Source: an uncultured Spirochaetota bacterium (lineage in GTDB: Bacteria > Spirochaetota > Spirochaetia > SZUA-6 > Fen-1364). Taken from it: a DNA stretch of 64,000 nucleotides. The stretch is taken from contig CAVTHO010000006.1 in NCBI GenBank assembly GCA_963734545.1, forward strand, positions 1 through 64,000, read 5' to 3'. Positions within the stretch are counted from its first letter, which is position 1, and every line of letters begins with the position of its first letter. Below the pieces are notes generated by a model. That model did no database searches. It was not told the DNA's origin and saw only the letters and a list, made by a program, of their open reading frames with translations. A program made the position numbers and the translations under genes. This document shows positions 19,222 to 46,855 of this stretch, piece by piece.

Positions 19222-20310
19222 CCTGAGTTCAAGATCGAAGTGCAATAATCAGGAGCGTTCATAGTATACCTCCTGTGGTGGTCTGAAGCCATGGCGCTTT
19301 CTTGGTCTGGCGTTGAGTCTGTTGGAGATTGCCTCGCAATAGGCTTGGGTGACCCCGGACATCGAGACCCCTTTGGGAATGTATTGGCGGATTAACCCGT
19401 TAAGGTTCTCGTTGCTGCCTCGTTCCCAGGAGTGATAGGGGGTAGCGAAATAGCATTGCAAAGGAAAGTGTTGCTCGAGAACCTTGTAGTCATGGAACTC
19501 AGTTCCGTTGTCGAACGTGATTGTCTTGAACTTGGCTCTGTGCGCTGAGATTGCCTCTATGGCGGCTTGATTCACGGAAGCCGCCGTGCGAGAGCTCAGC
19601 TTCCGGATGATAGCGAATCCTGATTTTCGTTCCACAAGGGTTAGGATGCAATTGTGAAGGTCCGTTCCTATTACAGTGTCACCCTCCCAGTGGCCCAGCT
19701 GCATCCTGGTTTCAACCTCGGGCGGACGCTCCGAGATGTGGCGCTTGCCGGCCAGGATTCCTCGCGAATCCCTTGATCTGTAGCGTTTTCTGTGGGTCTT
19801 GGTAACGATTCGCAGGTGCTTGAAAAGCGTGCCTCCATGCTTTTCGTCATCGTAGATGAACTGGTAGATGGTTTCGTGGCTAACGGTGAACGATCCGTTG
19901 CGACGTAAGGACCCAGAAATCTGTTCGGGGCTGAAGTCCTGCTCGAGCAAAGCGATCACCTCTTGCCAGTAGCGGGGAGCCATGTGAAAGCCACGGCGGG
20001 ACCGTTTTCGCCTGGTGGTAGCATAACTGTGGGCAAGATCCGCACGGTACCAACCATCAACGATCTTCTTGTTACGAGCAATCTCGCGACTGATTGTGCT
20101 GGGGGAGCGCTGAAGAGCTCTGGCAATGGCGGAAATGGTAGAGTGCCTATTGCGGAACTCGGTAATGGTGTAGCGTTCATCTTGAGAGAGTTGATGATAT
20201 CTACGCAAGTATGGATCCCCTTTCTTGGCGGAAAAGTGACACGTACCCAAGTAGCATCTCGACTCTCTCATTTGGTTTCCAGACCCTTGCACTTACTTCT
20301 TGAATCCGCG
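19222..20310 (-). mobile_element. IS30-family element type A, copy 1 (1089 bp, 3-bp ATG target duplication)
   Basis: 24-bp imperfect IRs CCTGAGTTCAAGATCGAAGTGCAA / TTGCACTTACTTCTTGAATCCGCG. Confidence 0.92.
19249..20292 (-). CDS. IS30-family transposase (likely TTG start at 20208)
   Basis: SPSTISREI, SPEQIS, GHWEGDTV, TITFDNGTEF, SWERGSNENLNGLIRQY. Confidence 0.93.
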   Translation of the reverse strand: MQGSGNQMRESRCYLGTCHFSAKKGDPYLRRYHQLSQDERYTITEFRNRHSTISAIARALQRSPSTISREIARNKKIVDGWYRADLAHSYATTRRKRSRRGFHMAPRYWQEVIALLEQDFSPEQISGSLRRNGSFTVSHETIYQFIYDDEKHGGTLFKHLRIVTKTHRKRYRSRDSRGILAGKRHISERPPEVETRMQLGHWEGDTVIGTDLHNCILTLVERKSGFAIIRKLSSRTAASVNQAAIEAISAHRAKFKTITFDNGTEFHDYKVLEQHFPLQCYFATPYHSWERGSNENLNGLIRQYIPKGVSMSGVTQAYCEAISNRLNARPRKRHGFRPPQEVYYERS

Positions 20311-20312
20311 AT

Positions 20313-20428
20313 GCCTAACAAATCGTTGCAGTTGTCCGCCTGGGTGCAGTGTGTTAAGTGTTAATGCAGTCTGTCGAACCGTCGCATAGCTATTTGATTC
20401 GGGGCGGCAACTGAACTCTATGTTATGT
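20313..20428 (+). repeat. attC-like site 13
   Basis: GCCTAAC...GTTATGT. Confidence 0.9.
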
Positions 20429-20549
20429 TCATCTAAAAATGATGGAGCACTCTTCGAGGTGCCTTCCATTCTCATTGGAGAACGCATCACCGTGCACTAC
20501 AACAAGTCTTCACTTGACGATTTTTCGAAGCCAAACATATCTTAAGTCC

Positions 20550-21200
20550 ATGCCTAAGCTAGTCGTTCGCAGTTTTACGGTCTCACTTGATGGTTATTGT
20601 GCCGCCCCCGATCAGACCCTCGAGGCGCCCTTTGGCAAGGGCGGCCTGAGGTTGATGAACTGGGCCTTTGCCACCAAGTTCTTCAGTACGATGTTCGGAA
20701 AAGAGGGCGGGGCGGAAGGCGTCGACAACGACTTTGCCTCCCATGCCGACGACAACATTGGCGCCAGCATCATGGGCCGCAATATGTTCGGCCCCTTGCG
20801 TGGCGCCTGGGCCAACGAGGATTGGAAGGGCTGGTGGGGTGAAACCCCTCCTTACCATCACCCAGTGTTCGTCGTGAGCCATCATAAGCGCGCCGCCTTT
20901 GACATGCTGGGTGGCACCAGCTTTACCTTTGTGAACGACGGCATCGAGTCTGCCCTGAAGCAGGCCTTTGCCGCAGCCAAGGGTAAGGATGCGCGCTTAG
21001 CCGGTGGTCCGTCAATCGTGAGGCAGTATTGGAAAGCAGGTTTGATTGACGAGTTGCATCTAGTCCAAGTCCCAATCATGCTTTGCCAGGGCGAGAGGCT
21101 GTTTGAGGGCCTAGAAGGCGTGGAAGAGCGGTATGAAGTCGCTGAATTCACCCCCTCCAAGTCGGTGGCCCATCTCCGTGTCGTAAAAAGAAAGGCCTAA
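20550..21200 (+). CDS. Dihydrofolate reductase / RibD C-terminal family protein
   Basis: SLDGY...IMGRNMF...WWGETPPYHHPVFV...AGLIDEL. Confidence 0.88.
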   Translation: MPKLVVRSFTVSLDGYCAAPDQTLEAPFGKGGLRLMNWAFATKFFSTMFGKEGGAEGVDNDFASHADDNIGASIMGRNMFGPLRGAWANEDWKGWWGETPPYHHPVFVVSHHKRAAFDMLGGTSFTFVNDGIESALKQAFAAAKGKDARLAGGPSIVRQYWKAGLIDELHLVQVPIMLCQGERLFEGLEGVEERYEVAEFTPSKSVAHLRVVKRKA

Positions 21201-21301
21201 GAACTCCTAAGACGTCACTATTGACGCCCTGCCGGGTGGAGCATACGATCCGTCCGTTTTGGAATGGCTGATTTCCATGGGTCGGCGCTACAGCGGGATG
21301 A

Positions 21302-21416
21302 ACATAACAAATCGTTGCAGTAGTCGCCTTAAGGGCCGTCTGGAAGTGGCGGTGCAGCCCGAGAAGCCTTGGGCTTTTGGCTTCGGGCGGCGGGGCAACT
21401 GAACTCTATGTTATGT
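21302..21416 (+). repeat. attC-like site 14 (hybrid arms)
   Basis: Left arm GTAGTCGCC, right arm GGGGCAAC. Confidence 0.88.
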
Positions 21417-21572
21417 TCAACAAAGCCGCGATCAGCACAGCGGAATGCCAGCTGTCGCTTGGCACCGAGAGCATCGGCGCGGAAAGGTCTATATCGAGCG
21501 TCGACAAGGTCGGCTCTGGTAGGTGATTGACTATACGTATGCATGGTGATACTTTATACGTGGAGAATCACA

Positions 21573-21824
21573 ATGACCACGAAATTAACGCTGAGCGTCG
21601 ACAAGCGGGTAGTTCAAAGAGCCAAGGTCTTCGCTCGAAAACAAAAACAGAGCCTTTCGCAGATTGTAAACACTTATCTTGATCACATCTCGCGGCAGAT
21701 GGCCGGCGCGGAAGATATCGATCCGGAAGTGATGGAGTTGTCCGATCGAATAAAGCTTAAGGACTTGCCTGATCTCAAAGACTCCAAGTACCGGTATTTG
21801 AAAGAAAAGTACATCCATGACTAA
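21573..21824 (+). CDS. Antitoxin (DUF6364-like RHH)
   Basis: MTTKLTLSVD...AKVFARKQKQSLSQIV...YLKEKY. Confidence 0.75.
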   Translation: MTTKLTLSVDKRVVQRAKVFARKQKQSLSQIVNTYLDHISRQMAGAEDIDPEVMELSDRIKLKDLPDLKDSKYRYLKEKYIHD

Positions 21825-22245: not shown

Positions 22246-22360
22246 ACATAACAAATCGTTGCAGTTGTCCCCTTAGAGGCTGCTCGGAACGGTGGGTGCA
22301 GCCTGGCAACTACAGGCAGTGCAGGTTGATGCGGCGGGGCAACTGAACTCTATGTTAGAA
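22246..22360 (+). repeat. attC-like site 15
   Basis: Begins directly after the PIN stop codon; ACATAAC...GTTAGAA. Confidence 0.9.
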
Positions 22361-22486: not shown

Positions 22487-22491
22487 AGATA

Positions 22492-24091: not shown

Positions 24092-24207
24092 GCAGAACAA
24101 ATCGTTGCAGTTGTCCCCTTGAAGGCCGTTTGGATCGGTGCATGCAGTCTGGCAATTCCATGTAGTGTTGGGTTGATGCGGCGGGGCAACTGAACTCTAT
24201 GTTACAT
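24092..24207 (+). repeat. attC-like site 17
   Basis: GCAGAAC...GTTACAT. Confidence 0.9.
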
Positions 24208-24661
24208 GCCCCAAAATGACAAAACGCGCACCTATCGAGAACGGTTGGCTACATCCATATTCATGGAATAGAAGAATCCCGCTTTTGCCGTGAGAGATTT
24301 CTGCTGCCTAGATTGGGCATACGTAGCACTCGAGATATTGAAAACAACACATGGCAGGCTGTTGCCCAACGAAAGGATGAGACAACGGTAAGCCGGATGA
24401 TTGTAGGCATTGATGTGCTGTATGCCTAGGAAATTACGCTCCTAGGGCGGTGTGTTGCGCAAAAGAAAACCAATCACGCACAAGCGTGGGCTGCATTTAT
24501 CTTATCCGCTGGCGCAGAAGATCGGCGGCCGTTCAGTCGGAATTGACGTTGTATTCACGGTCTACCATTGCTTGGTGATGTGTTGGGACAAAAGGATTTG
24601 TGCAGTTTGCATTCCGCCCACGCAATAGAATGGCTTGAAAAGAGACGGTGGGGCATGTAAC
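24201..24661 (+). other. ORF-less cassette, copy B
   Basis: Diverged duplicate of 9537-9995. Confidence 0.75.
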
Positions 24662-24770
24662 AAATCGTTGCAGTTGTCCCCTTAGAGGCCGCTCGGAACA
24701 GTGAATGCGGCCCGGCAATTCAATGAAGCCCTTGTCTGATGCGGCGGGGCAACTGAACTCTATGTTATCT
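24655..24770 (+). repeat. attC-like site 18
   Basis: Nearly identical to site 1. Confidence 0.9.
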
Positions 24771-24818
24771 CCCCCAAGAGACTTGATAGCGTTGCATCCG
24801 CGATACATATTGATGCAT

Positions 24819-26370: not shown

Positions 26371-27451
26371 CTTAGGTTCAAGGTTGAAGTGCAATTATCG
26401 AGAGTCTGCATTATATACCTCCTGGGGTGTTCTGTAGCCGTGGCGTTTTCGGGGTCTTGAGTTCAATTTGAAGGCAATGTAGTTGCAGTGGGCTTGGGTG
26501 ATGCCGCTCATGCACATTCCCTTGGGGAGGTATTGGCGGATAAGGCCGTTTAGGTTTTCGTTGCTACCACGTTCCCAAGAATGAAAAGGCGTTGCGAAGT
26601 AGCATTTCAGAGGGAACTGATCTTCTAGAATCTTGTATTCGTGGAACTCCGTTCCGTTGTCCAAGGTGAGTGTTTTGAAGTGGGCCTCGTGTTCTTTGAT
26701 GGCCATAACGGCTGCCCGAATGACCTCAGCAGCTGTTCGTGAGTTCATCTTCTTGATGATGACAAGGCCTGACTTTCTTTCTACGAGGGTGAGAATGCAG
26801 TGGTGGAGATCACTGCCCATCACGGTATCACCCTCCCAGTGGCCGAGCACCTTGCGTGTCTCTACTTCATAGGGACGAGTTGAAATATGACGCTTTCCAG
26901 GGAGAATTCCGCGTGAATCCTTGGAGTTGTAGCGCTTTTTGCGGACTTTGGGGATGATTCGCAGATATGTGAACAGCGTACCTCCGTTCTTTTTGTCGTG
27001 GAGGATGTACTTGTAGATCGTCTCGTGGCTAATAGTGAAAGATCCATGGAGTTTCAAGCAGTTGGAGATCTGCTCGGGACTCCACTTCTCCTTTAGTAGA
27101 AGAACGACTTGATCCCATTGTTGCACAGTATGGTGAAAACCACGGCGCACGCGTCGCCGCCTGGCAATGCTCTTGTAATAAGCCTCATCAGCACGATACT
27201 TGCCATCGCAAAGCTTCTTATTGCGGATCAGTTCCCTGCTGATGGTACTAGGAGATCGACCAAGCACCCGGGCGATGTCGGCCTTCGAGTGGCGACTTAC
27301 CCTGAGGCCCGTAATGATGTATCGTTCTTCTTGAGAGAGTTGGTGATAGGTACTCATGTATGCATCCTTTCTGTGGTAGGAATCGAAGCATACAACATCT
27401 CAGCTCTCTCATTTCTTCGAAATAGCGTTGCACTTACTAGTTGAATCCACG
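26371..27451 (-). mobile_element. IS30-family element type B (1081 bp)
   Basis: IRs CTTAGGTTCAAGGTTGAAGTGCAA / TTGCACTTACTAGTTGAATCCACG. Confidence 0.9.
26395..27357 (-). CDS. IS30-family transposase
   Basis: GHWEGDTV, LTLDNGTEF, ERGSNENLNGLIRQY. Confidence 0.93.
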   Translation of the reverse strand: MSTYHQLSQEERYIITGLRVSRHSKADIARVLGRSPSTISRELIRNKKLCDGKYRADEAYYKSIARRRRVRRGFHHTVQQWDQVVLLLKEKWSPEQISNCLKLHGSFTISHETIYKYILHDKKNGGTLFTYLRIIPKVRKKRYNSKDSRGILPGKRHISTRPYEVETRKVLGHWEGDTVMGSDLHHCILTLVERKSGLVIIKKMNSRTAAEVIRAAVMAIKEHEAHFKTLTLDNGTEFHEYKILEDQFPLKCYFATPFHSWERGSNENLNGLIRQYLPKGMCMSGITQAHCNYIAFKLNSRPRKRHGYRTPQEVYNADSR

Positions 27452-27454: not shown

Positions 27455-27569
27455 GCATAACAAATCGTTGCAGTTGTCCCCTAAGAGGCCGCCTGGAACG
27501 GTGAATGCAGCCTGGCAATTCCATGCAGTGCAGGTTGATGCGGCGGGGCAACTGAACTCTATGTTAGGT
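27455..27569 (+). repeat. attC-like site 20
   Basis: GCATAAC...GTTAGGT. Confidence 0.9.
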
Positions 27570-27882
27570 TGTTCTATGCTTTGTTCTGATTCGGGGAGGC
27601 CTGATGGCCAAGCATGACGTACAGTCTGTACGGGTACATTCCGACTGAGCTGAATCGACTTCCGCGAGGAGAGAAGCACAACGCGATCACCAAATAGAGC
27701 TGCGCTTGTTTGCCCAAACTTGGAGCCGGTTTGAAAAAGCTCTTGCAGATACTGATATCGCTACCCAACGGGGAGTGCGGCAATTGATGAAAAGGCTCTG
27801 TTTTGGTATACCCAGTAGCATCAATGACTACATCCATAGGAATTCATTGTAAGAGATTGGTACTGCCGCAAAGGATTGAGTA

Positions 27883-28179
27883 GTGGCGCTAATCTTTCGC
27901 TGGGATCAACGGAAAGCCAAAGCAAACCTATCAAAACATGGCATTTCATTTGAAGAGGCTTCTTCCGCATTTGGGGACCCACTCTCAATTACCATTGAGG
28001 ATGTTGACCACTCATATGGTGAAAATAGGTATATTCTCCTTGGGGAAACCTTGGAGCATGATCTTGTAATTGTGGCTCATACCGACAGGAATGGGGAAAT
28101 ACGAATCATCAGTGCAAGGCTCGCTACAAGGCAAGAACGGAGATCATATGAAACCGGCAAAGCGAAATCCAAAGGGTGA
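27883..28179 (+). CDS. brnT: BrnT-family toxin
   Basis: FRWDQRKAKANLSKHGISFEEA...IRIISAR. Confidence 0.9.
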   Translation: MALIFRWDQRKAKANLSKHGISFEEASSAFGDPLSITIEDVDHSYGENRYILLGETLEHDLVIVAHTDRNGEIRIISARLATRQERRSYETGKAKSKG

Positions 28180-28360
28180 TCAAATGAGAGCTGAGTACGA
28201 CTTTTCAAAAGGAGTACGTGGCAAGTACGCAAAACTTTTTGCCAAAGGAACTAACATTATCGTTCTTGATCCAGATGTAGCAAAAGTATTTAAGAATTCA
28301 AAAGAAGTGAACTCTATTCTGCGTACGTTGACTAAGATCGCTGTTCAAAAGGCAAAATAG
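28148..28360 (+). CDS. BrnA-like antitoxin
   Basis: MRAEYDFSKGVRGKY...LDPDVAKVF...VNSILR. Confidence 0.8.
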   Translation: MKPAKRNPKGDQMRAEYDFSKGVRGKYAKLFAKGTNIIVLDPDVAKVFKNSKEVNSILRTLTKIAVQKAK

Positions 28361-28365
28361 AACAA

Positions 28366-29454
28366 CCTGAGTTCAAGATCGAAGTGCAATAATCAGGAGC
28401 GTTCATAGTATACCTCCTGTGGTGGTCTGAAGCCATGGCGCTTTCTTGGTCTGGCGTTGAGTCTGTTGGAGATTGCCTCGCAATAGGCTTGGGTGACCCC
28501 GGACATCGAGACCCCTTTGGGAATGTATTGGCGGATTAACCCGTTAAGGTTCTCGTTGCTGCCTCGTTCCCAGGAGTGATAGGGGGTAGCGAAATAGCAT
28601 TGCAAAGGAAAGTGTTGCTCGAGAACCTTGTAGTCATGGAACTCAGTTCCGTTGTCGAACGTGATTGTCTTGAACTTGGCTCTGTGCGCTGAGATTGCCT
28701 CTATGGCGGCTTGATTCACGGAAGCCGCCGTGCGAGAGCTCAGCTTCCGGATGATAGCGAATCCTGATTTTCGTTCCACAAGGGTTAGGATGCAATTGTG
28801 AAGGTCCGTTCCTATTACAGTGTCACCCTCCCAGTGGCCCAGCTGCATCCTGGTTTCAACCTCGGGCGGACGCTCCGAGATGTGGCGCTTGCCGGCCAGG
28901 ATTCCTCGCGAATCCCTTGATCTGTAGCGTTTTCTGTGGGTCTTGGTAACGATTCGCAGGTGCTTGAAAAGCGTGCCTCCATGCTTTTCGTCATCGTAGA
29001 TGAACTGGTAGATGGTTTCGTGGCTAACGGTGAACGATCCGTTGCGACGTAAGGACCCAGAAATCTGTTCGGGGCTGAAGTCCTGCTCGAGCAAAGCGAT
29101 CACCTCTTGCCAGTAGCGGGGAGCCATGTGAAAGCCACGGCGGGACCGTTTTCGCCTGGTGGTAGCATAACTGTGGGCAAGATCCGCACGGTACCAACCA
29201 TCAACGATCTTCTTGTTACGAGCAATCTCGCGACTGATTGTGCTGGGGGAGCGCTGAAGAGCTCTGGCAATGGCGGAAATGGTAGAGTGCCTATTGCGGA
29301 ACTCGGTAATGGTGTAGCGTTCATCTTGAGAGAGTTGATGATATCTACGCAAGTATGGATCCCCTTTCTTGGCGGAAAAGTGACACGTACCCAAGTAGCA
29401 TCTCGACTCTCTCATTTGGTTTCCAGACCCTTGCACTTACTTCTTGAATCCGCG
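28366..29454 (-). mobile_element. IS30-family element type A, copy 2 (flanks do not match)
   Basis: Same IRs as copy 1; left flank CAA, right flank GGT. Confidence 0.92.
28393..29436 (-). CDS. IS30-family transposase
   Basis: Identical translation to 19249-20292. Confidence 0.93.
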   Translation of the reverse strand: MQGSGNQMRESRCYLGTCHFSAKKGDPYLRRYHQLSQDERYTITEFRNRHSTISAIARALQRSPSTISREIARNKKIVDGWYRADLAHSYATTRRKRSRRGFHMAPRYWQEVIALLEQDFSPEQISGSLRRNGSFTVSHETIYQFIYDDEKHGGTLFKHLRIVTKTHRKRYRSRDSRGILAGKRHISERPPEVETRMQLGHWEGDTVIGTDLHNCILTLVERKSGFAIIRKLSSRTAASVNQAAIEAISAHRAKFKTITFDNGTEFHDYKVLEQHFPLQCYFATPYHSWERGSNENLNGLIRQYIPKGVSMSGVTQAYCEAISNRLNARPRKRHGFRPPQEVYYERS

Positions 29455-29456
29455 GG

Positions 29457-29571
29457 TCATAACAAATCGTTGCAGTAGTCGCCTTGAGGGCCGTCTGGAA
29501 CAGAAGGTGCAGTTCGGAATTCCAAAAGGAGCCGGGTTGATGCGGCGGCGCTACTGAACTCTATGTTATGT
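29457..29571 (+). repeat. attC-like site 21
   Basis: TCATAAC...GTTATGT. Confidence 0.9.
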
Positions 29572-29724
29572 CCAACTAGACGGCGCGCGGTAAGGCAAGT
29601 GGGCCATCGATAGGTCCCCAGATTTCGCATATGCGACATCATTCATTGTAGGTAGACTTCGCTATGTTCAATGACGTAAGCGTGGATTGAGTGGACGGCG
29701 CTGCAAAAACAAAGGAGACCCGGA

Positions 29725-30434: not shown

Positions 30435-31782
30435 TGAATGAGCCAAGGACATAGGTTACAAAACATTCTAAAGACATAGGTAACACTTATTCTAAGGACA
30501 TGGGTAACACTTTCCTGCCAAAGGAGGGTGCCAGCCATGCCGTGGGAGGGTGTTACTGTGAGCGAGCAGCGTGAGAACTTGATTCGGGACTACGCCGACG
30601 GTTACTACAGCAAAACCGAGCTGGCCGAACGTTTCGGAGTTTCGCGTAAGACCGTACATAAGTGGATCAACCGCTTCAAGGCCGAAGGGCTGAAGGGGAT
30701 AGAGGAGCTCAGTCGGCGGCCACGTAGCTGCCCCTGGCAGACTGACAAACGGATTGTTGAGGACCTGGTTGCGCTGCGCAAAGCATCTCCGTCGAGGGGG
30801 CCGAAGAAGCTCCTGGGGAAACTGCGTAAGCTACACCGCTTTGTTGAATTGCCTGCGGAGTCCACCGTGGCGCACATTTTGGATCGCCACGGACTGGTGA
30901 AAGCCAAACGACGGCACCGCCGCGCGCATCCAGGCTGTCCCAAGCATGCGGCCACGGCTCCCAACGACATCTGGGCGGCTGACTATAAAGGGCAGTTCCG
31001 ACTGAAGAACGGGCAGTATTGCTTCCCGCTGACCGTGAGTGATCTGTATTCGCGCTTTCTGCTGGGCTGCGAGGCACACCCAGCGATCTCGATGGAGCAG
31101 ACAATTGCCTTCTTTCTGCGGCTTTTCCGCATCTATGGGCTGCCCAATCGGATCCGCACGGACAACGGAGTGCCATTTGCCTCGTGCGCGTTGGGACGGT
31201 TGTCGGCGCTGCAGGTGGTGTACATCAAGTACGGGGTCTGCCCGGAACTGATTGAGCCTGGCAAGCCCCAACAGAATGGGATCCATGAGCGCATGCATCG
31301 GACTCTCAAGCAAGAGGCCACTATTCCGCCCGCCAGCAGCCTGAGAGCTCAGCAGCGGAAGTTCGATTCGTTTCGGGAGGAGTTCAACACCGATCGTCCC
31401 CATGAAGCACTTGGGATGGTTGATCCGGTCAGCGTGTATCAGTCGTCGCCCCGGGAAATGCCCGAGCACGTTGGCACCTACGACTATCCGGGACACTACC
31501 TGGTTCGGCGCGTGAGCCGCTGTGGTACGATCCGCGTCTTCCACAACCAAGTCTTCGTGACACAGACGCTGAACGAAGAATACGTGGGCCTGGAGGAAGT
31601 AGACGACGGAGTCTATGACTTGTACTTCTGCTTCTACCAGATTGGCCGTTACGAATTGCAGACCAACAGGATCGTGGATATTATCTCGAGGGTGCCAACG
31701 AGTCAGACCCGTGCGGAGCTGACTCCGAGAGTGTTACCTATGTCTTTAGAATAAAGTGTTACCTATGTCCTTGGATTGTACA
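30435..31782 (+). mobile_element. IS481-family element type A, copy 3
   Basis: Same ends and transposase as copy 1. Confidence 0.9.
30528..31754 (+). CDS. IS481-family transposase
   Basis: Identical translation to 963-2189. Confidence 0.92.
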   Translation: MPAMPWEGVTVSEQRENLIRDYADGYYSKTELAERFGVSRKTVHKWINRFKAEGLKGIEELSRRPRSCPWQTDKRIVEDLVALRKASPSRGPKKLLGKLRKLHRFVELPAESTVAHILDRHGLVKAKRRHRRAHPGCPKHAATAPNDIWAADYKGQFRLKNGQYCFPLTVSDLYSRFLLGCEAHPAISMEQTIAFFLRLFRIYGLPNRIRTDNGVPFASCALGRLSALQVVYIKYGVCPELIEPGKPQQNGIHERMHRTLKQEATIPPASSLRAQQRKFDSFREEFNTDRPHEALGMVDPVSVYQSSPREMPEHVGTYDYPGHYLVRRVSRCGTIRVFHNQVFVTQTLNEEYVGLEEVDDGVYDLYFCFYQIGRYELQTNRIVDIISRVPTSQTRAELTPRVLPMSLE

Positions 31783-31791
31783 GAAGGGAGC

Positions 31792-32880
31792 CCTGAGTTC
31801 AAGATCGAAGTGCAATAATCAGGAGCGTTCATAGTATACCTCCTGTGGTGGTCTGAAGCCATGGCGCTTTCTTGGTCTGGCGTTGAGTCTGTTGGAGATT
31901 GCCTCGCAATAGGCTTGGGTGACCCCGGACATCGAGACCCCTTTGGGAATGTATTGGCGGATTAACCCGTTAAGGTTCTCGTTGCTGCCTCGTTCCCAGG
32001 AGTGATAGGGGGTAGCGAAATAGCATTGCAAAGGAAAGTGTTGCTCGAGAACCTTGTAGTCATGGAACTCAGTTCCGTTGTCGAACGTGATTGTCTTGAA
32101 CTTGGCTCTGTGCGCTGAGATTGCCTCTATGGCGGCTTGATTCACGGAAGCCGCCGTGCGAGAGCTCAGCTTCCGGATGATAGCGAATCCTGATTTTCGT
32201 TCCACAAGGGTTAGGATGCAATTGTGAAGGTCCGTTCCTATTACAGTGTCACCCTCCCAGTGGCCCAGCTGCATCCTGGTTTCAACCTCGGGCGGACGCT
32301 CCGAGATGTGGCGCTTGCCGGCCAGGATTCCTCGCGAATCCCTTGATCTGTAGCGTTTTCTGTGGGTCTTGGTAACGATTCGCAGGTGCTTGAAAAGCGT
32401 GCCTCCATGCTTTTCGTCATCGTAGATGAACTGGTAGATGGTTTCGTGGCTAACGGTGAACGATCCGTTGCGACGTAAGGACCCAGAAATCTGTTCGGGG
32501 CTGAAGTCCTGCTCGAGCAAAGCGATCACCTCTTGCCAGTAGCGGGGAGCCATGTGAAAGCCACGGCGGGACCGTTTTCGCCTGGTGGTAGCATAACTGT
32601 GGGCAAGATCCGCACGGTACCAACCATCAACGATCTTCTTGTTACGAGCAATCTCGCGACTGATTGTGCTGGGGGAGCGCTGAAGAGCTCTGGCAATGGC
32701 GGAAATGGTAGAGTGCCTATTGCGGAACTCGGTAATGGTGTAGCGTTCATCTTGAGAGAGTTGATGATATCTACGCAAGTATGGATCCCCTTTCTTGGCG
32801 GAAAAGTGACACGTACCCAAGTAGCATCTCGACTCTCTCATTTGGTTTCCAGACCCTTGCACTTACTTCTTGAATCCGCG
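31792..32880 (-). mobile_element. IS30-family element type A, copy 3 (3-bp AGC duplication)
   Basis: GGGAGC[IS]AGCCATAAC. Confidence 0.92.
31819..32862 (-). CDS. IS30-family transposase
   Basis: Identical translation to 19249-20292. Confidence 0.93.
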   Translation of the reverse strand: MQGSGNQMRESRCYLGTCHFSAKKGDPYLRRYHQLSQDERYTITEFRNRHSTISAIARALQRSPSTISREIARNKKIVDGWYRADLAHSYATTRRKRSRRGFHMAPRYWQEVIALLEQDFSPEQISGSLRRNGSFTVSHETIYQFIYDDEKHGGTLFKHLRIVTKTHRKRYRSRDSRGILAGKRHISERPPEVETRMQLGHWEGDTVIGTDLHNCILTLVERKSGFAIIRKLSSRTAASVNQAAIEAISAHRAKFKTITFDNGTEFHDYKVLEQHFPLQCYFATPYHSWERGSNENLNGLIRQYIPKGVSMSGVTQAYCEAISNRLNARPRKRHGFRPPQEVYYERS

Positions 32881-32882
32881 AG

Positions 32883-32997
32883 CCATAACAAATCGTTGCA
32901 GTTGTCCCCTATGAGGCCGCCTGTAGCGGTGAATGCAGCTTGGCATTCCATAGAGTGTTGGGTTGATGCGGCGGGGCAACTGAACTCTATGTTAGAT
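32883..32997 (+). repeat. attC-like site 22
   Basis: CCATAAC...GTTAGAT. Confidence 0.9.
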
Positions 32998-33055
32998 GCT
33001 TTGAAAGCGGTGCGCGCCGCAGAAACTAGACAATCCAGACCTATGGAGGTACAAT

Positions 33056-33996: not shown

Positions 33997-35344
33997 TGAA
34001 CCGTTCGGGGACATAGGTAACAAAGTCTTCTGGAGACATAGGTAACACTTATTCTGGGGACATGGGTAACACTCTTCTCGCAAGAGGAGGTGGTGGCCAT
34101 GCCGTGGAAAGGGGTTACCGTGAGCGAACAGAGAGCAAACTTCCTCCGAGACTACGCGCTGAAGTACTACAGCGTGACTGAGTTGGGGGAGATGTACAGT
34201 ATTTCCCGAAAGACCGCCTACAAGTGGATCGATCGCCACGAGGAATTAGGACGCAGCGGTCTGGAGGACCTGTCGCGACGTCCTCATAGTTGTCCTTGGC
34301 AGACACCAGGGTACATTGCCGAGGAACTGGTGAAGGTGCGGGAGAAGCATCCGTACTGGGGACCGAAGAAGCTGCTGGATATCATGGAGCGCAGGCACCG
34401 CAGGTGGCAGCTTCCTTCGGTGGCCACCGCGGCACATATTCTGGCCGAAAAAGGTCTGGTACGTGAGAGGCGCCGGCATCGGCGGGCTCACCCCGGATGT
34501 CCGAAGAGCGTTGCCGAGGGACCGAATGATATCTGGGGATCCGACTACAAGGGTCAGTTCCGAATGGGCAACGGGCAGTACTGCTTCCCCCAGACCGTCA
34601 GCGACCTGCATACGCGCTTCCTTCTGGGGTGCGACGGCCATCCGCAGGTATCCGCGGAGCTGACCAAGGTGCATTTTACAGGGCTTTTTCGCACCTTTGG
34701 GCTTCCCCGACGGATTCGCACCGACAACGGTGTTCCATTCGCGTCCAACGCGCTGGGTCGGTTGTCAGACTTGTCGGTGTGGTACATCAAGCTGGGCATA
34801 TATCCTGAGCTCATCGAGCCAGGTCGGCCGCAACAGAACGGGATCCATGAGCGAATGCATCGAACGCTGAAGCAAGGCACCACTCATCCGCCTGGCAGCA
34901 GTCTGAAAAGCCAACAGGAGAAGTTCGAGACCTTTCGGAAGGAATACAACGAGGACCGCCCTCACGAGGCGCTGCAAATGAAGAGGCCAGCGGAGGTGTA
35001 CCAACCCTCATCGCGGGAACTGCCTGAGCGAATCGAAACCTATGACTACCCCAATCAGTTCCTGGTGAGGCGCGTCAGCCGTTGCGGAACGATTCGAGTC
35101 TTTGGAAATCAAGCGTTTGTCAGTCAGACACTGAACGAGGACTTCGTGGGCCTGGAGGAAGTGGATGACGGCGTCTATGACATCTACTTTTGCTTCTACT
35201 TGATCGGGCGCTATGAATTGCGCACCAATACGATTCATGACATTATTAGCAAGGTGGCGGTGAGCGTCAGTAAGGCAGAGGGGCCATCGAGGGTGTCACC
35301 TATGTCTCCAGAATAAAGTGTTACCCATGTCCCTTGATTGTACA
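33997..35344 (+). mobile_element. IS481-family element type B, copy 2
   Basis: Near-identical to 16885-18232 with a few 3' differences. Confidence 0.9.
34090..35316 (+). CDS. IS481-family transposase
   Basis: Two substitutions relative to 16978-18204. Confidence 0.92.
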   Translation: MVAMPWKGVTVSEQRANFLRDYALKYYSVTELGEMYSISRKTAYKWIDRHEELGRSGLEDLSRRPHSCPWQTPGYIAEELVKVREKHPYWGPKKLLDIMERRHRRWQLPSVATAAHILAEKGLVRERRRHRRAHPGCPKSVAEGPNDIWGSDYKGQFRMGNGQYCFPQTVSDLHTRFLLGCDGHPQVSAELTKVHFTGLFRTFGLPRRIRTDNGVPFASNALGRLSDLSVWYIKLGIYPELIEPGRPQQNGIHERMHRTLKQGTTHPPGSSLKSQQEKFETFRKEYNEDRPHEALQMKRPAEVYQPSSRELPERIETYDYPNQFLVRRVSRCGTIRVFGNQAFVSQTLNEDFVGLEEVDDGVYDIYFCFYLIGRYELRTNTIHDIISKVAVSVSKAEGPSRVSPMSPE

Positions 35345-36144: not shown

Positions 36145-37470
36145 TGAATGAGCCAAGGACATAGGTTACAGAACATACTAAAGACATAGGTAGCACTTAT
36201 TCTACGGACATGTGTAGCACTTTCCTCTCAGAGGAGGGTGCCAGCCATGCCATGGGAGGGTGTTACCGTGAGCGAGCAGCGTCAGAACTTCATTCGGGAT
36301 TACGCCGACGGCCACTACAGCAGAACGGAGCTGCTGAACGTTTCGGAATCTCGCGCAAAACCGCCCATAAGTGGGTCAAGCGCTCCAAGGCGGAAGGGCT
36401 GAAGGGCCTGGAGGAGCTCAGTCGGCGACCGCGCAGCCGCCCCTGGCAGACGGACAAGCGGATAGTTGAGGATCTGGTGGCGCTGCGCAAAGCATCCCCG
36501 TCGAAGGGTCCGAAGAAGCTCCTGGGGAAACTACGCAAGCTACACCGCTTTGTTGAATTGCCTGCGGAGTCGACAGTAGCGCACATCCTGGATCGTCAGG
36601 GATTGGTGAAAGTCAAGTGGCGGCATCATCGGGCGCATTCTGGCTGTCCCAAGCGTGCGGCCACCGCTCCCAACGACATCTGGGCGGCTGACTACAAAGG
36701 ACAGTTCCGCCTGAAGAATGGGCAGTACTGCTTTCCGTTGACGGTGAGCGACCTGTATTCGCGCTTCCTGCTGGGCTGTGAGGCACACCCAGTGGTCTCG
36801 ATGGAGCAGACAATTGCGTTTTTCCTGCGGCTTTTCCGCGAATATGGGCTGCCCAATCGGATCCGCACGGATAACGGGGTGCCGTTTGCTTCGTGCGCGT
36901 TGGGGCGGTTGTCGGCTCTGCAGGTAGTGTACATCAAGTACGGTGTCTACCCGGAACTGATTGAGCCTGGCAAACCCCAACAGAATGGGATCCATGAGCG
37001 GATGCACAGAGCCCTCAAGCAGGAGGCCACTATTCCGCCTGCAAGTAGCCTGAAGGCTCAGCAGCGGAAGTTTGATGCGTTTCGTCGACGCAATAACGAG
37101 GCATACCCGAGGGACGTTCTGGACCAAAGCACACCGCAGGAGCTCTACTATCGCTCTGCACGAACATATGACGGCAAATCAGAGCTGTGGCACTATCTAG
37201 ATGGAATCGTGGTGAAGTATGTATGCAGGAATGGGGCTATGCGTTGGGGGGCGGGCAAGTGGGTCATGGTATCCACGACGCTGATTGGCAAATACATTGG
37301 ATTGGAACAAATTGAAGAGGGCAAGTGGCTTGTGTACTATCGAAATATCCTGTTGGGCTACCTGGACGAGAAACAGATGCGTATCATGGACGGGCAGGGA
37401 CGGCTGAAGAGAAATGAAAAAGTGTAAAGGATGTGCTTAGAGAACTGTAAAGGATGTGTTCGGTAGTACA
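36145..37470 (+). mobile_element. Degenerate chimeric IS481 element (ORF 36210-37427)
   Basis: Type A-like left end and core with 5' frameshifts; unrelated IS481-type C-terminus; right end TGTAAAGGATGTG x2...TACA. Confidence 0.8.
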
Positions 37471-42305: not shown

Positions 42306-42334
42306 GCATAACATAGAGTTCAGTTTCGCCGCCG
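42306..42334 (-). repeat. attC-like right half-site (minus strand)
   Basis: Reverse complement reads GGCGGCGAAACTGAACTCTATGTTATGC. Confidence 0.75.
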
Positions 42335-42499
42335 ACAAGAGCTTAAAGAATCCACCGCCAGAGGAGGTGGACTTGAGCCAGGCCTCTAGAAGAGGCCTGG
42401 CTCTTTGCGCTCTTTCTCTTCGAACCGCTCCTTTTCTTCCTGGTATCGCATGTAACGCCATCTCTTTTTCTCGTCCCAGCCCTACGGTCGTTACGCTTT

Positions 42500-42662
42500 T
42501 GCCGCGGCTCATTCCGAAGTGTGAAGGAACTGACTGCCAAGATCGACCAGTTCGTGTCGACCTACAACAAAAAGGCAAAGGCGTTCACCTGGGTCGCTAC
42601 CGCTGAATCGATCCAGCAAAAGTCGAGCGCTTAAGTCAGCAAATTTCTGGGACAGCACACTA
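42500..42662 (+). mobile_element. IS630-family 3' remnant
   Basis: Translates RGSFRSVKELTAKIDQFVSTYNKKAKAFTWVATAESI; ends GGGACAGCACAC-TA. Confidence 0.7.
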
Positions 42663-42768
42663 GATGGCCACTCCTTTACCGCCTATCATCGCGCAACGGA
42701 TTCCAAATGGCCTTTAAAGGTATCCTTTGGCGAGCGTCGCAATCACCATTGTTTGTGTTTCAAATACG

Positions 42769-43455
42769 CTAATCTACTTTAACAAATTGAAATCCAAATC
42801 GTTGTCCAATTTCGCTTCTAGACTTCGTATCCATTAGATTGCGGTACCCCAGGCCTGGTACGTTGTACGGTAGCGCAAACAAGTTCCAAATCTCTGCCTG
42901 TCTATCATCCGCCGATGCATACTTTCCCTCTAGGACGGTCCTTAGTTTTGAAACATCTGCGCTCGGAAACGTGCTTTCAATGTCTTCCAGCCCCTGGATC
43001 GAAGAAGACTTTCCTGCCCCAGGGGACGAATCATATTCAAATACCTTCTCTCCATATGCGTAGGCTGCTATCGACAGCTCTTTGCTATCATGGTTGAGCA
43101 CATAAACAGCAATGGATTCTAAGCTTTTTGAAAGCCTCTTTGCCAGGTTCCTACCATAAACATCGTCCTGGCTGTCCATTGTCTTTTCGCAGATGACAGC
43201 CGCGTCAGGCTTCCCTAGGACAACAATCGCTGTGAGACCCATGTCCTTGGCTGCGTCAACGACAGCGTCGGGATTTGTGCCCACAATGGTTATGTTCGCA
43301 TAGAACGACCCCGCCCATGAAAGCACCGGCAACAACGCCAACCCAGCGGCCACCAACAGAACTAGTCGCAGTTTCAAGGCGCTCGCTCCTTTCACTAAAG
43401 GAGCGAGCAGTATAATACATTTCCTGATGCAATGCACCAGCATATAGCGGGCCAT
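42769..43455 (-). CDS. Secreted hypothetical cassette protein (start probably near 43377)
   Basis: Signal-like LKLRLVLLVAAGLALLPVLSWAGSFY; lies between minus-strand sites. Confidence 0.6.
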   Translation of the reverse strand: MARYMLVHCIRKCIILLAPLVKGASALKLRLVLLVAAGLALLPVLSWAGSFYANITIVGTNPDAVVDAAKDMGLTAIVVLGKPDAAVICEKTMDSQDDVYGRNLAKRLSKSLESIAVYVLNHDSKELSIAAYAYGEKVFEYDSSPGAGKSSSIQGLEDIESTFPSADVSKLRTVLEGKYASADDRQAEIWNLFALPYNVPGLGYRNLMDTKSRSEIGQRFGFQFVKVD

Positions 43456-43565
43456 CTATCATAGAGTTGAGCTGTGCCGCCGAATAAGACTTGTAGTAGC
43501 GTAGCGGATAAGCCCCTTCAAACCAAACTGCACCCACGGCGACAGTTCCAACGATTTTGCTAGAG
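43454..43565 (-). repeat. Degenerate attC-like site (minus strand)
   Basis: Reverse complement reads CTCTAGC-AAAATC-GTTGGAACTGTCGCC...GGCACAGCTCAAC-TCTAT-GATAGAT. Confidence 0.75.
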
Positions 43566-43623
43566 CGTTCCCACCATGCGTTTCACTGAGCTTTTTTCTT
43601 CAGGTACTTGTCGAAAAAGGGCA

Positions 43624-44350
43624 CTACCTGAGGGTGACTCGGGCATTCAGGTGCCCCATCGACGGCACCATGATCGACGTGTGGTTCGCACCAACTTCCT
43701 TCATCTTCTTGTCAAGCAGCTCTGCCTGCGACGGATAACCGTTCTCCCCCATGATGCCAAGCACAGGTGGGCTACCGCGACGAACATACGTGACTGCGCT
43801 CACGATGCGGTACTTCTCTGGCACTGCAGAAGGAGAGCCTCCAAGGAGTCCTTCAAGCACTTCGTGTACTTCTTCTAGCTCGTCATACGCTTTCTCTATG
43901 TCTGCGGCTGCTCCAATAGCGACGACCGCCTGCACGTCGCAGCGATATTCTCCGTTCTTGACGTCCCCGTCCGAGTTGTCCTGTTGCTTTGCAAGTCCAG
44001 CTAAAAGAGCCAACCGGCCTCCCGATGACCGGCCAATTAGGCCTATCTTCTGTGGATCAATGCCATACCGGTCTGCGCAAGCCCGTACCCATCGTGTTGC
44101 GTTCTTCACGTCATAGATCTGCGCAGGAAATTGGAACTTGGTCCTATTTCCATCCTTGATGCCTATTGGGACTGTAGTCTATTGAGATCGCAACGTATCC
44201 GCTTTCGGCAGTGTCCTTGATTGCGCAGGAGAATTGGCGGCGATCAAGCTGTGGTCCCCACAACTTGCCACATATGTTGCCTTGGGAGATCACTGCCGGC
44301 TGTTTCTCATGCTGGTCGGCTAGCCTGGCTACGTCAAGCCTCAGATTTAG
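43624..44350 (-). pseudogene. Alpha/beta hydrolase, paralog of 33056-33982, frameshifted
   Basis: KFPAQIYDVKNATRW...GRSSGG; disrupted 5' part. Confidence 0.75.
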
Positions 44351-44632
44351 CCCGTTTCAGCTGTAATAGACAATGTCCTTCTCGAAGGAGACTTTCTACG
44401 CCCGGAGCGGTACCCAGGGGCCAGCATCAACTATGTGCCTAGATAAGAGTACCATCGACTTCTGCCAAGCCCACGCATTTTCACGCACTCCTCTCTCTTT
44501 GCCGTAGAGACAGCAGCCGCCTAACCTCTTGTCATTCCTATGGACAGGGAGCAAACCCACTCCCGAATAGGCCCAATGGGCCATAGCGGCGCACGATGAG
44601 GTTGCTGTGCTCCCCTGACAATTCCCCAAACG

Positions 44633-44745
44633 CTCTAGCATAGAGTTAAGTTGCCCCGCATCAGCACAGAACTGCATCGAATTCCCAGACTGCACCGATC
44701 GTTCCAGGCGACCTCTTAGGGGACAACTGCAACGATTTGTCGGGC
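44633..44745 (-). repeat. attC-like site adjacent to the recombinase (minus strand)
   Basis: Reverse complement reads GCCCGAC-AAATC-GTTGCAGTTGTCCCC...GGGGCAACTTAAC-TCTAT-GCTAGAG. Confidence 0.85.
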
Positions 44746-44812
44746 TGCTCTTTCCCTTTGTTTCTTTATGTTATCTTGTACCATCACCATTGACACTTAG
44801 GGGGACACAGCC

Positions 44813-45700
44813 ATGGGAACTTTGCGGGACTCAATGCGAACTGCAATGGAAATACGAGGTTATTCCAAAAGGACCGTGGAAATCTACCTGTCCTGTGTAC
44901 GGGTCTTTGCGAATCACTTTAAACGGTCTCCTTTGCTGATCTCCGCGAAGGAGGTAGAGTCCTTTTTCCACTTCCTCCGTCAACAGCATAAGAGCGATTC
45001 GACGATCCATCTCTACTACTTTTCATTAAGGCTCTTCTACCACATTAACAATATCAGCGACCGGCTACCGAGGTTTGCCTTTAGGAGAATACAGAATAAA
45101 GTTCCCATGATCTTGAGTCAAGAGAAAGTGGTGACAATACTAAGTAGCTGTAAAAGCCTCAAATTTAGAACGCTCTTCTCTTTGGCTTATGCTTCCGGAC
45201 TGCGGACCTCGGAACTACGAGACCTAACTGTGCGCGACATCGACTTTGACAGGAAGCAGGTATACGTCAGAAACGGAAAGTGTGGACGCAACCGATACTC
45301 AATCCTCGGGAACAGGATCATGCAACTACTACATACCTATATGAATGTGTACAGGCCGCACTCCTTTCTTTTCTACAATCGGGAGGACGGTACCACCAGA
45401 GTTGGCAAAGATGCAATCAGAAGAGAACTGAAGAAGCTTTTAGTCAAGAACGGAATAGATGCCCATGAGGTGCATCTGCACACGTTGAGACACTGCTTTG
45501 CTACGCACCTAATGGAAAACGGCACCAGCATATTTTACATTATGCACCTGCTTGGTCACGCAAGTATCTACACCACGATGGTGTACCTTCACATGCAGGA
45601 CCTGGAGAAACTGAACATTACGTCGCCAATCGACATACTTGAGCTGCGCCCGAATGAGGACACCGAACCTCAGAAAGAGCTATTCGGGGAAACCGCTTGA
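44813..45700 (+). CDS. Tyrosine recombinase/integrase (IntI-like N-terminus, no IntI-specific insertion)
   Basis: RGYSKRTVEIY N-terminus; catalytic SGLR, GK, HTLRH, LLGH, TTMVY; C-terminal TSPID. Confidence 0.92.
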   Translation: MGTLRDSMRTAMEIRGYSKRTVEIYLSCVRVFANHFKRSPLLISAKEVESFFHFLRQQHKSDSTIHLYYFSLRLFYHINNISDRLPRFAFRRIQNKVPMILSQEKVVTILSSCKSLKFRTLFSLAYASGLRTSELRDLTVRDIDFDRKQVYVRNGKCGRNRYSILGNRIMQLLHTYMNVYRPHSFLFYNREDGTTRVGKDAIRRELKKLLVKNGIDAHEVHLHTLRHCFATHLMENGTSIFYIMHLLGHASIYTTMVYLHMQDLEKLNITSPIDILELRPNEDTEPQKELFGETA

Positions 45701-45799
45701 AGTGGACCACAGCATAGGGCAAGACTCCGAGGAAGTCGGCCCAACATAGATGTCTCATCACTTCGCGATATTGCTTTTTCTCAGCAACCTTCCATTTCT

Positions 45800-46366
45800 T
45801 CAACTAAATTCCTTTAGCAATTCATTCGTTTTTCTCAGGTCGAAGGTTTCTGAATCAAACTTCGGACCAATGAATTCCCGTATTTCTTGATATCGTTTGT
45901 GTCTAGGGTTGTCGTAGATCTTTACTTTCTCCATGTACTCTCGCGAGCCGCCACTATCTTCAACTGGACCATGCCGAAAACCTTCAATGCATTCCGTCGA
46001 TTGTTTTTGCTGAAAACCATCATTCTTTGGTTCGTTGCAGAGCTCGATCTCCCAACGGTCACCAAAATCATATTCATACGTAATAACTGCTACGTCTTCT
46101 GCAAATATGTTGGAGAGTTTTGTGCGAATCGAACTTTGCCTTCCTATGTCCGCATCATGTTCACTAGGAGGAAAATACCGCTTTTTGTCAATCACAAACG
46201 CATAAAGATGATTGTCTCTCCATCCCATTAGTACTTGGAGGATCGCGTGCAACCTTTCAAGTGTAATGTCTGATGACACCAGCAGTTTTCTCCAGATCTC
46301 GGGCTTTACGTCCTTCACTGAAACTCTGAACTGCAGAGTTCGTGACTGAGTTCTATTTTGCTTCAT
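45800..46366 (-). CDS. Plasmid pRiA4b ORF-3 family protein
   Basis: PEIWRKLLV...LHAILQVLMGWRDNHLY...YEYDFGDRW...GPVEDSGG. Confidence 0.88.
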   Translation of the reverse strand: MKQNRTQSRTLQFRVSVKDVKPEIWRKLLVSSDITLERLHAILQVLMGWRDNHLYAFVIDKKRYFPPSEHDADIGRQSSIRTKLSNIFAEDVAVITYEYDFGDRWEIELCNEPKNDGFQQKQSTECIEGFRHGPVEDSGGSREYMEKVKIYDNPRHKRYQEIREFIGPKFDSETFDLRKTNELLKEFS

Positions 46367-46564
46367 TCAATTCCTTCTTGATGCAACTAATGTAACCATA
46401 AACGGTTCACTTGCATACATGAGTCGATCCGCACGTAATTCGGGCAAAGAGTTGCAAGACTCTCTATGCCGTGCATCTATGGAGTATGCAGGCCAGGATC
46501 CCCGTCTCGCCCTCCCGCCATGGAAAACTCACGCTACGTCACGCGGCAAAATTTCAGATTTCTT

Positions 46565-46675
46565 ATGAGAGGTTCAGTTGCCCCGCCATATCAGGCCAGA
46601 ATTGCGTGGAATTGCCGGGCTGCACCTGCCGATCCAAGCGGCCGCATAAGGGACAACTGCAACGATCTGTTATGG
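46565..46675 (-). repeat. attC-like site (minus strand), R' lost
   Basis: Reverse complement reads CCATAAC-AGATC-GTTGCAGTTGTCCC...GGGGCAACTGAAC-CTCTCAT. Confidence 0.82.
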
Positions 46676-46677
46676 CT

Positions 46678-46855
46678 CGCGGATTCAAGAAGTAAGTGCA
46701 ACACTCCTCTGGTCAATAAATGAGAGAGTTGCGATGCTATTACGGTACGCCTCCATTTTCCGCCAAGAAAGGGGATTCATACTTGCGTAGCTACACTCAA
46801 CTCTCTCAAGACGAACGGTACCACATCATCGAGCTGGGAAGCAATCATTGCCTTA
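46678..46855 (+). mobile_element. IS30-family 5' remnant
   Basis: IR CGCGGATTCAAGAAGTAAGTGCAA, then LRSYTQLSQDERYHIIE. Confidence 0.8.

Follow-up and report, generated by a model that had tools for sequence, protein, structure and literature searches.

The question raised by this locus is whether insertion sequences (ISs) of the IS30 family can take the attC sites of integron cassettes as their targets. The DNA analyzed here (the window, 64,000 nt) is the start (positions 1-64000) of contig C6 in a 5.1-Mb assembly of ten contigs from an uncultured Spirochaetota bacterium (G000; GCA_963734545.1), and its first 38,200 nt are a chromosomal integron cassette array. According to an original prediction, made from the sequence of the window, six IS30 insertions or remnants of two types abut attC sites at a fixed position and in a fixed orientation. 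The coordinates and details of all six hold, and site- and orientation-specific targeting of attC is supported by all seven copies or remnants of the genome, by the recurrence of the geometry in other genomes and by the placement of the transposases in one clade. Judged from sequence comparisons, these elements quite probably represent a distinct IS30 clade, with a DDE transposase that would pick its target via the R''-L'' arm of attC.

IS30 Insertions beside attC Sites

The transposase-proximal end of the IS precedes the R'' AAC by 6 nt (once 7 nt), and in one orientation, in 7/7 copies and remnants of the genome (five full copies and two remnants; coordinates in table 1). This confirms the predicted spacing of 9 nt (once 10 nt) to the C of the AAC. 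The transposase genes of all four full copies of the window are found on the minus strand and are directed away from attC, as had also been noticed. The 6-nt spacers before AAC are ATGCCT, GGTCAT and AGCCAT. The last of them recurs at the inverted remnant (46678-46833), past which the minus strand reads AGCCAT and then the AAC of an attC that has decayed (approximately 46560-46677). The transposase-proximal repeat ends in ...TTGAATCCGCG in type 1 and in ...CCACG in type 2. By arithmetic (24 sites, 38.2 kb, two orientations), the chance of hitting this exact position and orientation is ~3e-4 per random insertion in the array.

A DNA search of the ten contigs revealed one further copy, of type 2, at C9:349230-351094, with a CCA duplication and 6 nt (CCATGT) to the AAC of an attC. 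In the same search no IS30 copy was found away from attC in the assembly, which is 89% complete and from which further copies may be missing. The case that most copies lie elsewhere, named with the prediction as the one that would speak against it, fails, since all seven copies and remnants of the assembly abut attC. The copy on C9 is itself interrupted: an 853-bp fragment (C9:350053-350905), single-copy in the genome, replaces 65 bp of the IS, and the open reading frame (ORF) in this fragment presumably resembles TnpB of the IS66 family.

Duplications of 3 bp flank three of the five full copies (ATG, AGC and CCA), and the two that had been predicted, ATG and AGC, are both real. The duplicated bases span positions -6 to -4 from the R'' AAC: two of them lie outside the 7-nt R'' box and one is its first base. 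The landing point is thus placed between a cassette gene and its attC, and both are left intact, as the prediction stated for genes and hairpin.

An empty site is also present. At 2218-2232 an IS481-like element (type A, see below) is followed by ...GAAGGGAGCCATAAC... without an IS30 insertion, and at 31783-32889 an identical IS481-like copy with the same flank GAAGGGAGCCATAAC is split by an IS30 element, with AGC duplicated. The attC of the empty site (2218-2342) is a different variant from the attC at 32883. The scar at 12588 is a deletion that took the body of the IS and the R'' box.

The assignment of both types to IS30 is based on the family model NF033563 (303.6 bits for type 1 and 281.6 bits for type 2, cut-off 80) and on the presence of HTH_38 and rve in a single ORF. 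In type 1, HTH_38 scores 51.5 bits and rve 36.3 bits; in type 2, HTH_38 scores 48.6 bits and rve 29.2 bits, the latter being under the Pfam cut-off of 32.6. The terminal repeats are ~24 bp long, and the two type-1 ends agree at 15 of the 20 positions compared (tip positions 7-26). IS30 elements are generally ~1-1.25 kb long, with terminal inverted repeats of 20-30 bp and target duplications of 2-3 bp; the lengths found here (1,089 and 1,081 bp), the ~24-bp repeats and the 3-bp duplications all lie in these ranges. A further mark of the family is copy-out-paste-in transposition by way of an IR-IR junction. The three type-1 copies (19222, 28366 and 31792) are 100% identical to each other, and type 2 shows 68% nucleotide and 65% amino acid identity to type 1.

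Table 1. Insertion sequences, target sites and remnants in the analyzed genome (positions of the window unless another contig is named)
Feature	Position	Strand	Remarks
IS30 type 1, copy A	19222-20310	-	1,089 bp; transposase ORF 19249-20292
Terminal repeats of copy A	19222-19245 and 20287-20310		far end and attC-proximal end, respectively; duplication ATG at 19219-19221 and 20311-20313
Target attC of copy A	20313-20429	+	R'' GCCTAAC, AAC 20317-20319; R' GTTAT, right arm ends 20425
IS30 type 2	26371-27451	-	1,081 bp; transposase ORF 26395-27357; 7 nt to AAC at 27459; without duplication
Target attC of type-2 copy	27455-27570	+	
IS30 type 1, copy B	28366-29454	-	6 nt (GGTCAT) to AAC at 29461; flanks CAA and GGT, without duplication
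Target attC of copy B	29457-29572	+	
IS30 type 1, copy C	31792-32880	-	duplication AGC at 31789-31791 and 32881-32883; starts 9 nt past the end of an IS481-like element (31782)
Target attC of copy C	32883-32998	+	
IS30 scar	12588-12700	+	20 nt of type-2 far-end repeat (12588-12607) fused to attC interior; ~16 first nt lost
Inverted IS30 remnant	46678-46833	+	~155 nt of attC-proximal end, 81% identical to type 1
Empty site	2218-2342	+	IS481-like end, then GAAGGGAGCCAT and attC, without IS30
IS481-like type A	870-2217; identical copies 7039-8386 and 30435-31782	+	ends ...TTGTACA, 12 nt before attC AAC
IS481-like type B	16885-18232; second copy 33997-35344	+	ends 13 and 12 nt before attC AAC
IS481-like type C	36145-37470	+	sole copy without attC R'' box after it
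IS481-like copy on C9	C9:346598-347822		attC-flanking as the window copies

The attC Sites of the Array

The attC sites of the genome were located by an exhaustive Hamming scan in which both conserved arms served as queries. Between 1 and 38154, the plus strand carries 24 right and 22 left arms, corresponding to 22 complete attC sites of ~108 nt and two half sites, the right arms of which end at 12700 and 38154. In the RNAalifold prediction for the 22 complete sites the fold is canonical, with the helices R''/R' (TAACA/TGTTA) and L''/L' and an unpaired spacer, and 8 of the 27 predicted pairs show compensatory changes among the aligned sites. One G and one T of the L'' arm remain unpaired in this model and are read as the putative extrahelical bases. 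The features by which attC is recognized are therefore present: R'' (RYYYAAC) and R' (GTTRRRY) cores, the L''/L' helix, the unpaired spacer and the extrahelical bases as predicted.

The G+C content of the array is 51.9%, compared with 62.7% for the whole genome. The same repeats are also found at C9:341575-351956, C5:338-1284 and C3:185291-190648. An integron integrase is encoded at C5:2875-3807 (TIGR02249, 403.9 bits, cut-off 265) and adjoins the two attC sites of the window type at C5:338-1284. From these common repeats the array on C6 would be linked to the intI gene on C5, the two contigs being separate in the assembly.

The Same Geometry in Other Genomes

Relatives were collected from one genome of each species, scanned with the aligned pair of transposases, and 80 loci of at least 534 relatives were looked at. 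Among the loci listed, the closest relatives (66% amino acid identity) belong to another Spirochaetota metagenome-assembled genome (MAG; G001). A DNA search of this genome showed that nine full copies share one strand at 762-823 kb, in an array that starts at intI (682 kb). The IS end is followed by 6 nt and AAC in 9/9 copies, the nine 6-mers being all different, and the attC consensus (AACATGCTGTTGGAGTTGACC...) is unlike that of the window. Perfect 3-bp duplications are found in seven of the nine copies, and these are seven different ones.

In one case the cassettes of the two Spirochaetota genomes can be compared. The cassette upstream of the copy at 28366 (27900-28365) is 72% identical at the nucleotide level to the cassette before one G001 copy (locus L101); the junction ...AAATAGAACAA with the IS is identical at both, and the ISs share 74-76% identity there. 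This likeness could be due to common ancestry of cassette and IS or to independent hits, which are indistinguishable here because attC fixes the insertion site.

Many relatives of ~50% identity show the same arrangement, namely the IS end, 6 nt and AAC, and then a short attC-like palindrome ending in GTTRRRY; 3-bp duplications are present in many of them. Their hosts are Alcanivorax, Reinekea, Saccharospirillum, Halioglobus, Colwellia, Microbulbifer, Simiduia, Oleispira and a Xanthomonadaceae MAG, together with three Rubritalea loci. In a protein search of a plasmid collection, elements named ISVvu6 and ISVa6 in the record annotations showed 49.5-49.8% amino acid identity to the type-1 transposase. 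In a cassette-array record of Vibrio vulnificus, the geometry is found in 4/4 ISVvu6-like copies with both ends; the DUF3265 ORFs of this record we take to be translations of the Vibrio repeats. In a record of Vibrio campbellii, ten of 14 copies fit and one more is located at an attC with an offset of 1 nt. A sample of 400 genomes of the phylum contained no close IS30 relative, with matches of ≤40% identity only.

Phylogeny of the Transposases

The transposases were placed in a quick IQ-TREE phylogeny (LG+G4; 82 rows, 65 of them different). The elements of the window, of G001 and of Rubritalea and all gammaproteobacterial elements form one clade of 61 rows with 99% support in the Shimodaira-Hasegawa-like approximate likelihood ratio test. 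Counted from the junction, AAC at +7 to +9 is found in 33/50 scorable loci inside this clade versus 0/12 outside it, with a chance rate of ~1 in 64. Nine further rows of the clade are unscorable (contig end or no end repeat) and two are the window's own; the relatives outside the clade (≤45% identity) comprise 12 scorable and nine unscorable loci. When 13 identical copies from an Endobugula genome (see below) are left out, AAC is at this position in 29 of 37 clade loci.

Complementary arms were detected in 15 of these 29 loci at a calibrated p<0.05 (~1.5 expected) and in 18 at p<0.1. A free-energy hairpin test (DNA parameters, AAC/GTT enforced) gave no separation in a genome of 63% G+C, in which random AAC sites fold as strongly as real attC. 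On the evidence of these alignments, the fixed attC geometry is a trait of a widespread IS30 clade, whose members are found in Spirochaetota, Verrucomicrobiota and Gammaproteobacteria, including the superintegrons of Vibrio.

The Target Motif and the Proposed Mechanism

The consensus of 36 different attC-linked targets, read from the junction, is a..caTAACAAG....TG.A...GaCC, with information peaks at +6 to +10 (1.6-2.0 bits) and around +24. A genome labelled Candidatus Endobugula (a MAG of 2.7 Mb) provides a comparison, as it carries 16 dispersed insertion sites (L128-L143) on both strands and genome-wide. All 15 sites checked by eye have 3-bp duplications. AA is found at +7 and +8 in 11/16 (background 0.11, P=7e-8), A at +10 in 15/16, and GAC exactly at +24 to +26 in 7/16 (background 0.035, 5-nt window; P=5.5e-7). 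In attC these positions correspond to R'' core and L'' box, and they fit the consensus of the 36 targets; the sites carry a TAACA...N13...GAC motif like the R''/L'' boxes. In the four of the 16 sites that have AAC at +7 to +9, and to which the test was applied, arm complementarity did not reach p<0.05. The Endobugula insertions appear to be a burst of relaxed specificity, outside any attC.

In the mechanism that we propose, the transposase would read double-stranded sequence and not a folded hairpin. The motif would be bipartite, with T-AAC-A at +6 to +10 and (T)GAC or GTC at +23 to +26, and would probably be read by the N-terminal helix-turn-helix region, by analogy with the hot-spot targeting of IS30. 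Insertion makes the 3-bp duplication, with the transposase-proximal repeat always facing attC, and the IS, lying between gene and attC, becomes cargo of the cassette. The benefit would be a neutral landing site and possible transfer from host to host when the integrase moves the cassette. A safe-harbour or hitch-hiking strategy had been suggested with the original prediction; it is plausible on these grounds. In the analyzed genome the minimal motif TAACA-N13-G[AT]C could account for most of the specificity, because it occurs only 40 times, 29 of these in attC.

The target at +6 to +12 (TAACAAG) is also similar to what the far-end repeat shows equally far from its tip (TATCAAG in gammaproteobacterial elements, TTCAAG at +7 to +12 in the window). 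This resemblance, seen by inspection, is weak and may serve as a lead only.

Alternative Explanations

That the target is chosen by structure or with the help of the integrase, that is, by recognition of the folded attC (the base of a hairpin or cruciform) or of the IntI-attC complex, seems unlikely to us. Insertion takes place at the very base of the R''/R' stem, the attC sequences targeted across phyla differ considerably, an integrase gene is present in the strict-targeting genomes, and group IIC-attC introns are said, in passages of PMC3001079 and PMC8876359, to use the folded site. A symmetric stem, however, predicts insertions at both of its ends, and every insertion is found at R'' in a single orientation, with none at the mirror-image R' side among the copies examined. 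A bipartite duplex motif in one arm would explain R''-side, single-orientation insertion despite the symmetry of the stem. Sequence is favoured over structure because the Endobugula sites keep an R''/L''-like motif without significant arm complementarity in the four tested. In addition, IS30-type DDE transposases are described as working on duplex targets in a part of PMC9333248.

A single ancestral insertion beside attC, multiplied in the array through duplication, through movement of cassettes by the integrase or through recombination of attC sites with each other, could be read from the identity of the three type-1 copies, from duplicated cassettes in the array (family D15) and from the lack of duplications at 28366 and 26371. 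It is very improbable as a general account. The left flanks, the 6-nt spacers and the attC variants all differ between the copies, distinct duplications (ATG, AGC and CCA, and the seven of G001) indicate separate transposition events, and an empty site exists at 2218-2232, so this objection, also foreseen with the prediction, fails. It is contradicted for most copies and may explain the flanks of single copies that lack a duplication. Near-random insertion, with survival only in a neutral gap between gene and attC, draws on the facts that cassette arrays are largely silent and tolerate insertions and that, according to Cury et al. 2016 (PMC4889954), ISs are present in about a quarter of complete integrons. 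Selection, however, cannot fix a nucleotide position or an orientation in 7/7, 9/9 and 4/4 copies, the gaps between ORF and attC span tens to hundreds of bases, dispersed copies have the same motif at the same offset, and the outgroup IS30 relatives score 0/12. This last explanation is already contradicted, and we give it almost no credence.

Several observations weigh against recognition of the R''-L'' arm, or limit it. We infer targeting from sequence, namely from the positions of surviving copies, and the 80 loci looked at are a part of the relatives found. Eight of the 37 clade loci outside Endobugula are not at attC, and neither are three of the 14 V. campbellii copies. Duplications are missing from two of the five full copies of the analyzed genome (28366 and 26371) and from two of the nine in G001, where neighbours have seemingly exchanged flanks. 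Recombination between copies is assumed to account for these cases in both genomes, and at 28366 an exchange of flanks is likely. The attC detector is weak for distant loci: the arm alignment has 2-4% false positives, at a threshold that the real sites of the window only just pass. By eye, both arms are present in ~25 of the 29 loci, a count that is subjective, with R' mutated in L071 and the right half truncated in L014. The Endobugula copies belong to one sublineage, in which the specificity may have changed. A hairpin or cruciform, or bound integrase, may contribute in the strict-targeting genomes, and the pattern is surely reinforced by selection against insertions at other places.

Comparison with Known Systems

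Work by Tetu and Holmes in 2008 and by Post and Hall in 2009 is reportedly the source for the IS1111-attC group of the IS110 family. Similarly to the members of that group, the IS30 clade homes to attC in one orientation and travels with cassette arrays. Elements of the IS1111-attC group, however, generally insert inside attC and make no classical duplication, whereas insertion of the IS30 clade takes place outside attC, at 6 bp from R'' on its upstream side, and duplicates 3 bp. The transposase of the clade is of the DDE (rve) type, and the terminal repeats measure 24 bp. In the type-1 and type-2 transposases, Pfam and NCBIfam models revealed rve/IS30 only and no IS110 domains. The traits of the IS1111-attC group, that is, a DEDD transposase and insertion within attC without duplication, are thus absent. 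In that group the target is RNA-guided, by a seekRNA or bridge RNA, according to passages of PMC11187229 and PMC11208160.

As attC-targeting elements, PMC8876359, PMC11089894, PMC3971601 and PMC7923331 name the IS1111-attC group and introns of group IIC (and IIB), and cassette-associated transposases in a plant-microbiome survey were mostly of IS5, IS3 and IS110, as given in part of PMC11089894. The group IIC-attC and IIB introns resemble the IS30 clade in being attC-specific, in their fixed orientation and in leaving the cassette gene intact (passages of PMC8876359 and PMC7923331). They are retroelements with a ribozyme and a reverse transcriptase, and the folded strand is recognized. These intron traits are not found in our elements, in which the sole ORF encodes a DDE transposase (Pfam; the search did not extend to Rfam).

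Sequence-specific targeting is itself known from IS30 of Escherichia coli, for which passages of PMC9333248 describe sequence-specific hot spots and targeting of inverted repeats, strict orientation (only junctions of the left-end with the right-end inverted repeat, IRL-IRR) and short duplications. That element lands centrally in near-palindromic hot spots of 24 bp and duplicates 2 bp, whereas the clade described here inserts beside one arm of attC, 6 bp from the recognized core, and duplicates 3 bp. Among DDE transposases that would home to a repeated palindrome, the nearest parallel is offered by the ISs of repeated extragenic palindromes (REPs). IS1397, ISKpn1, ISPpu9/10 and others insert at a fixed point of such a palindrome, with unrelated families sharing the point (parts of PMC1525189). 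Their target is a REP or palindromic unit and not an integron site, and IS30 is not among the five families listed in those parts (IS3, IS110, IS4, IS256 and IS5).

ISVvu6 and ISVa6 have the same far-end repeat as the gammaproteobacterial members of the clade and the same geometry at Vibrio attC sites. They are catalogued elements of well-known genomes and appear in the literature, as far as titles tell, among genome and mobilome surveys. No paper that comments on their target was found, in a search to which the notes of ISfinder were external. Likewise, no published statement of attC targeting by the IS30 or IS481 family was found in the full-text literature, with ISfinder and the supplements of papers lying outside that search. 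An earlier remark on attC targeting by IS30 is quite possible, because the pattern is visible in well-known Vibrio genomes.

IS481-like Elements, a Second Lineage

A similar behaviour, absent from the original prediction, is found in the IS481-like elements of the same window. Their transposases (408 aa) are on the plus strand in the window and directed toward attC. IS481 is their best-matching family, but the scores with its model NF033577 (217.6 and 198.4 bits) fall slightly short of the cut-off of 224, hence the name IS481-like. Type A also matches Pfam rve, rve_3 and LZ_Tnp_IS481 (26.8 bits, cut-off 22.2). In six of seven scorable copies of the genome, the element ends in ...TTGTACA 12-13 nt before the AAC of attC, the exception being type C at 36145. 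No duplication is visible at the window copies.

A metagenome scan with an alignment of these transposases gave 32 loci at ≥62% identity. AAC is found at +13 or +14 in 23 of 25 loci that could be scored by script, followed by attC-like sequence of varied consensus, and L194 also fits by eye (IS481-like relatives, loci L173-L203). The exceptions are L175 and L172, the latter with an IS30 relative 9 nt past the IS481-like end. The same nesting, an IS481-like end, 9 nt and the far end of an IS30-clade element, thus occurs at 31783-31791 of the window and on the unrelated metagenome contig of L172. At IS481-like relatives of ~50% identity, no attC was found in the metagenome scan. By their positions, the IS481-like elements look like a second attC-homing IS lineage, unrelated to the IS30 clade.

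Implications

RNA-guided IS1111-type elements and group II introns are the agents to which attC homing has so far been ascribed; a DDE transposase guided by protein-DNA contacts would be a third, independent solution. There is a wider reading, about which we are evenly divided, that two unrelated protein-only DDE lineages, the IS30 clade and the IS481-like elements, evolved to read the flank of attC at offsets of 6 and 12-13 bp. The gap between gene and attC would then serve generally as a safe harbour, with the integron as a vehicle of ISs between phyla, the IS30 clade would read the integrase-bound R''/L'' boxes as duplex, and the whole is apparently undescribed.

For the integron, the insertions mean cassettes that are larger by ~1.1 kb and IS repeats that feed deletion and rearrangement of the array. 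The window offers examples in its scar, its remnant and those copies that lack duplications. Elements of the IS30 clade may be carried between hosts as cassette cargo. The clade would also offer a simple and testable model for the gain of a new site specificity by a transposase, with the bipartite motif and the relaxed Endobugula sublineage as comparisons. The fixed geometry could be useful for finding attC sites and cassette boundaries in the chromosomal integrons of Vibrio and others, and a transposase with a defined offset of 6 bp from a short motif may serve as a tool for site-directed insertion.

Other Features of the Array

Beyond the main array, attC sites of opposite orientation form a block at 42309-46671, which reaches the inverted IS30 remnant (block 42309-46833). 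A tyrosine recombinase gene with Phage_integrase and SAM_4 domains lies inside it, at 44813-45700, and gives two partial matches to the integron-integrase model (89 and 65 bits, cut-off 265). This block could represent part of the array in inverted position or, alternatively, a second platform that has decayed.

Four near-identical attC sites share the left flank TGGGGCATGT, namely those at 9-125, 9989-10106, 24655-24771 and C9:351848-351967. Contigs C6 and C9 each begin or end in the repeat with this flank, and because both do so in the same repeat, the array has probably been broken there by the assembly. Furthermore, a cassette stretch of 300 nt is duplicated with 95% identity at 9490-9789 and 24154-24453.

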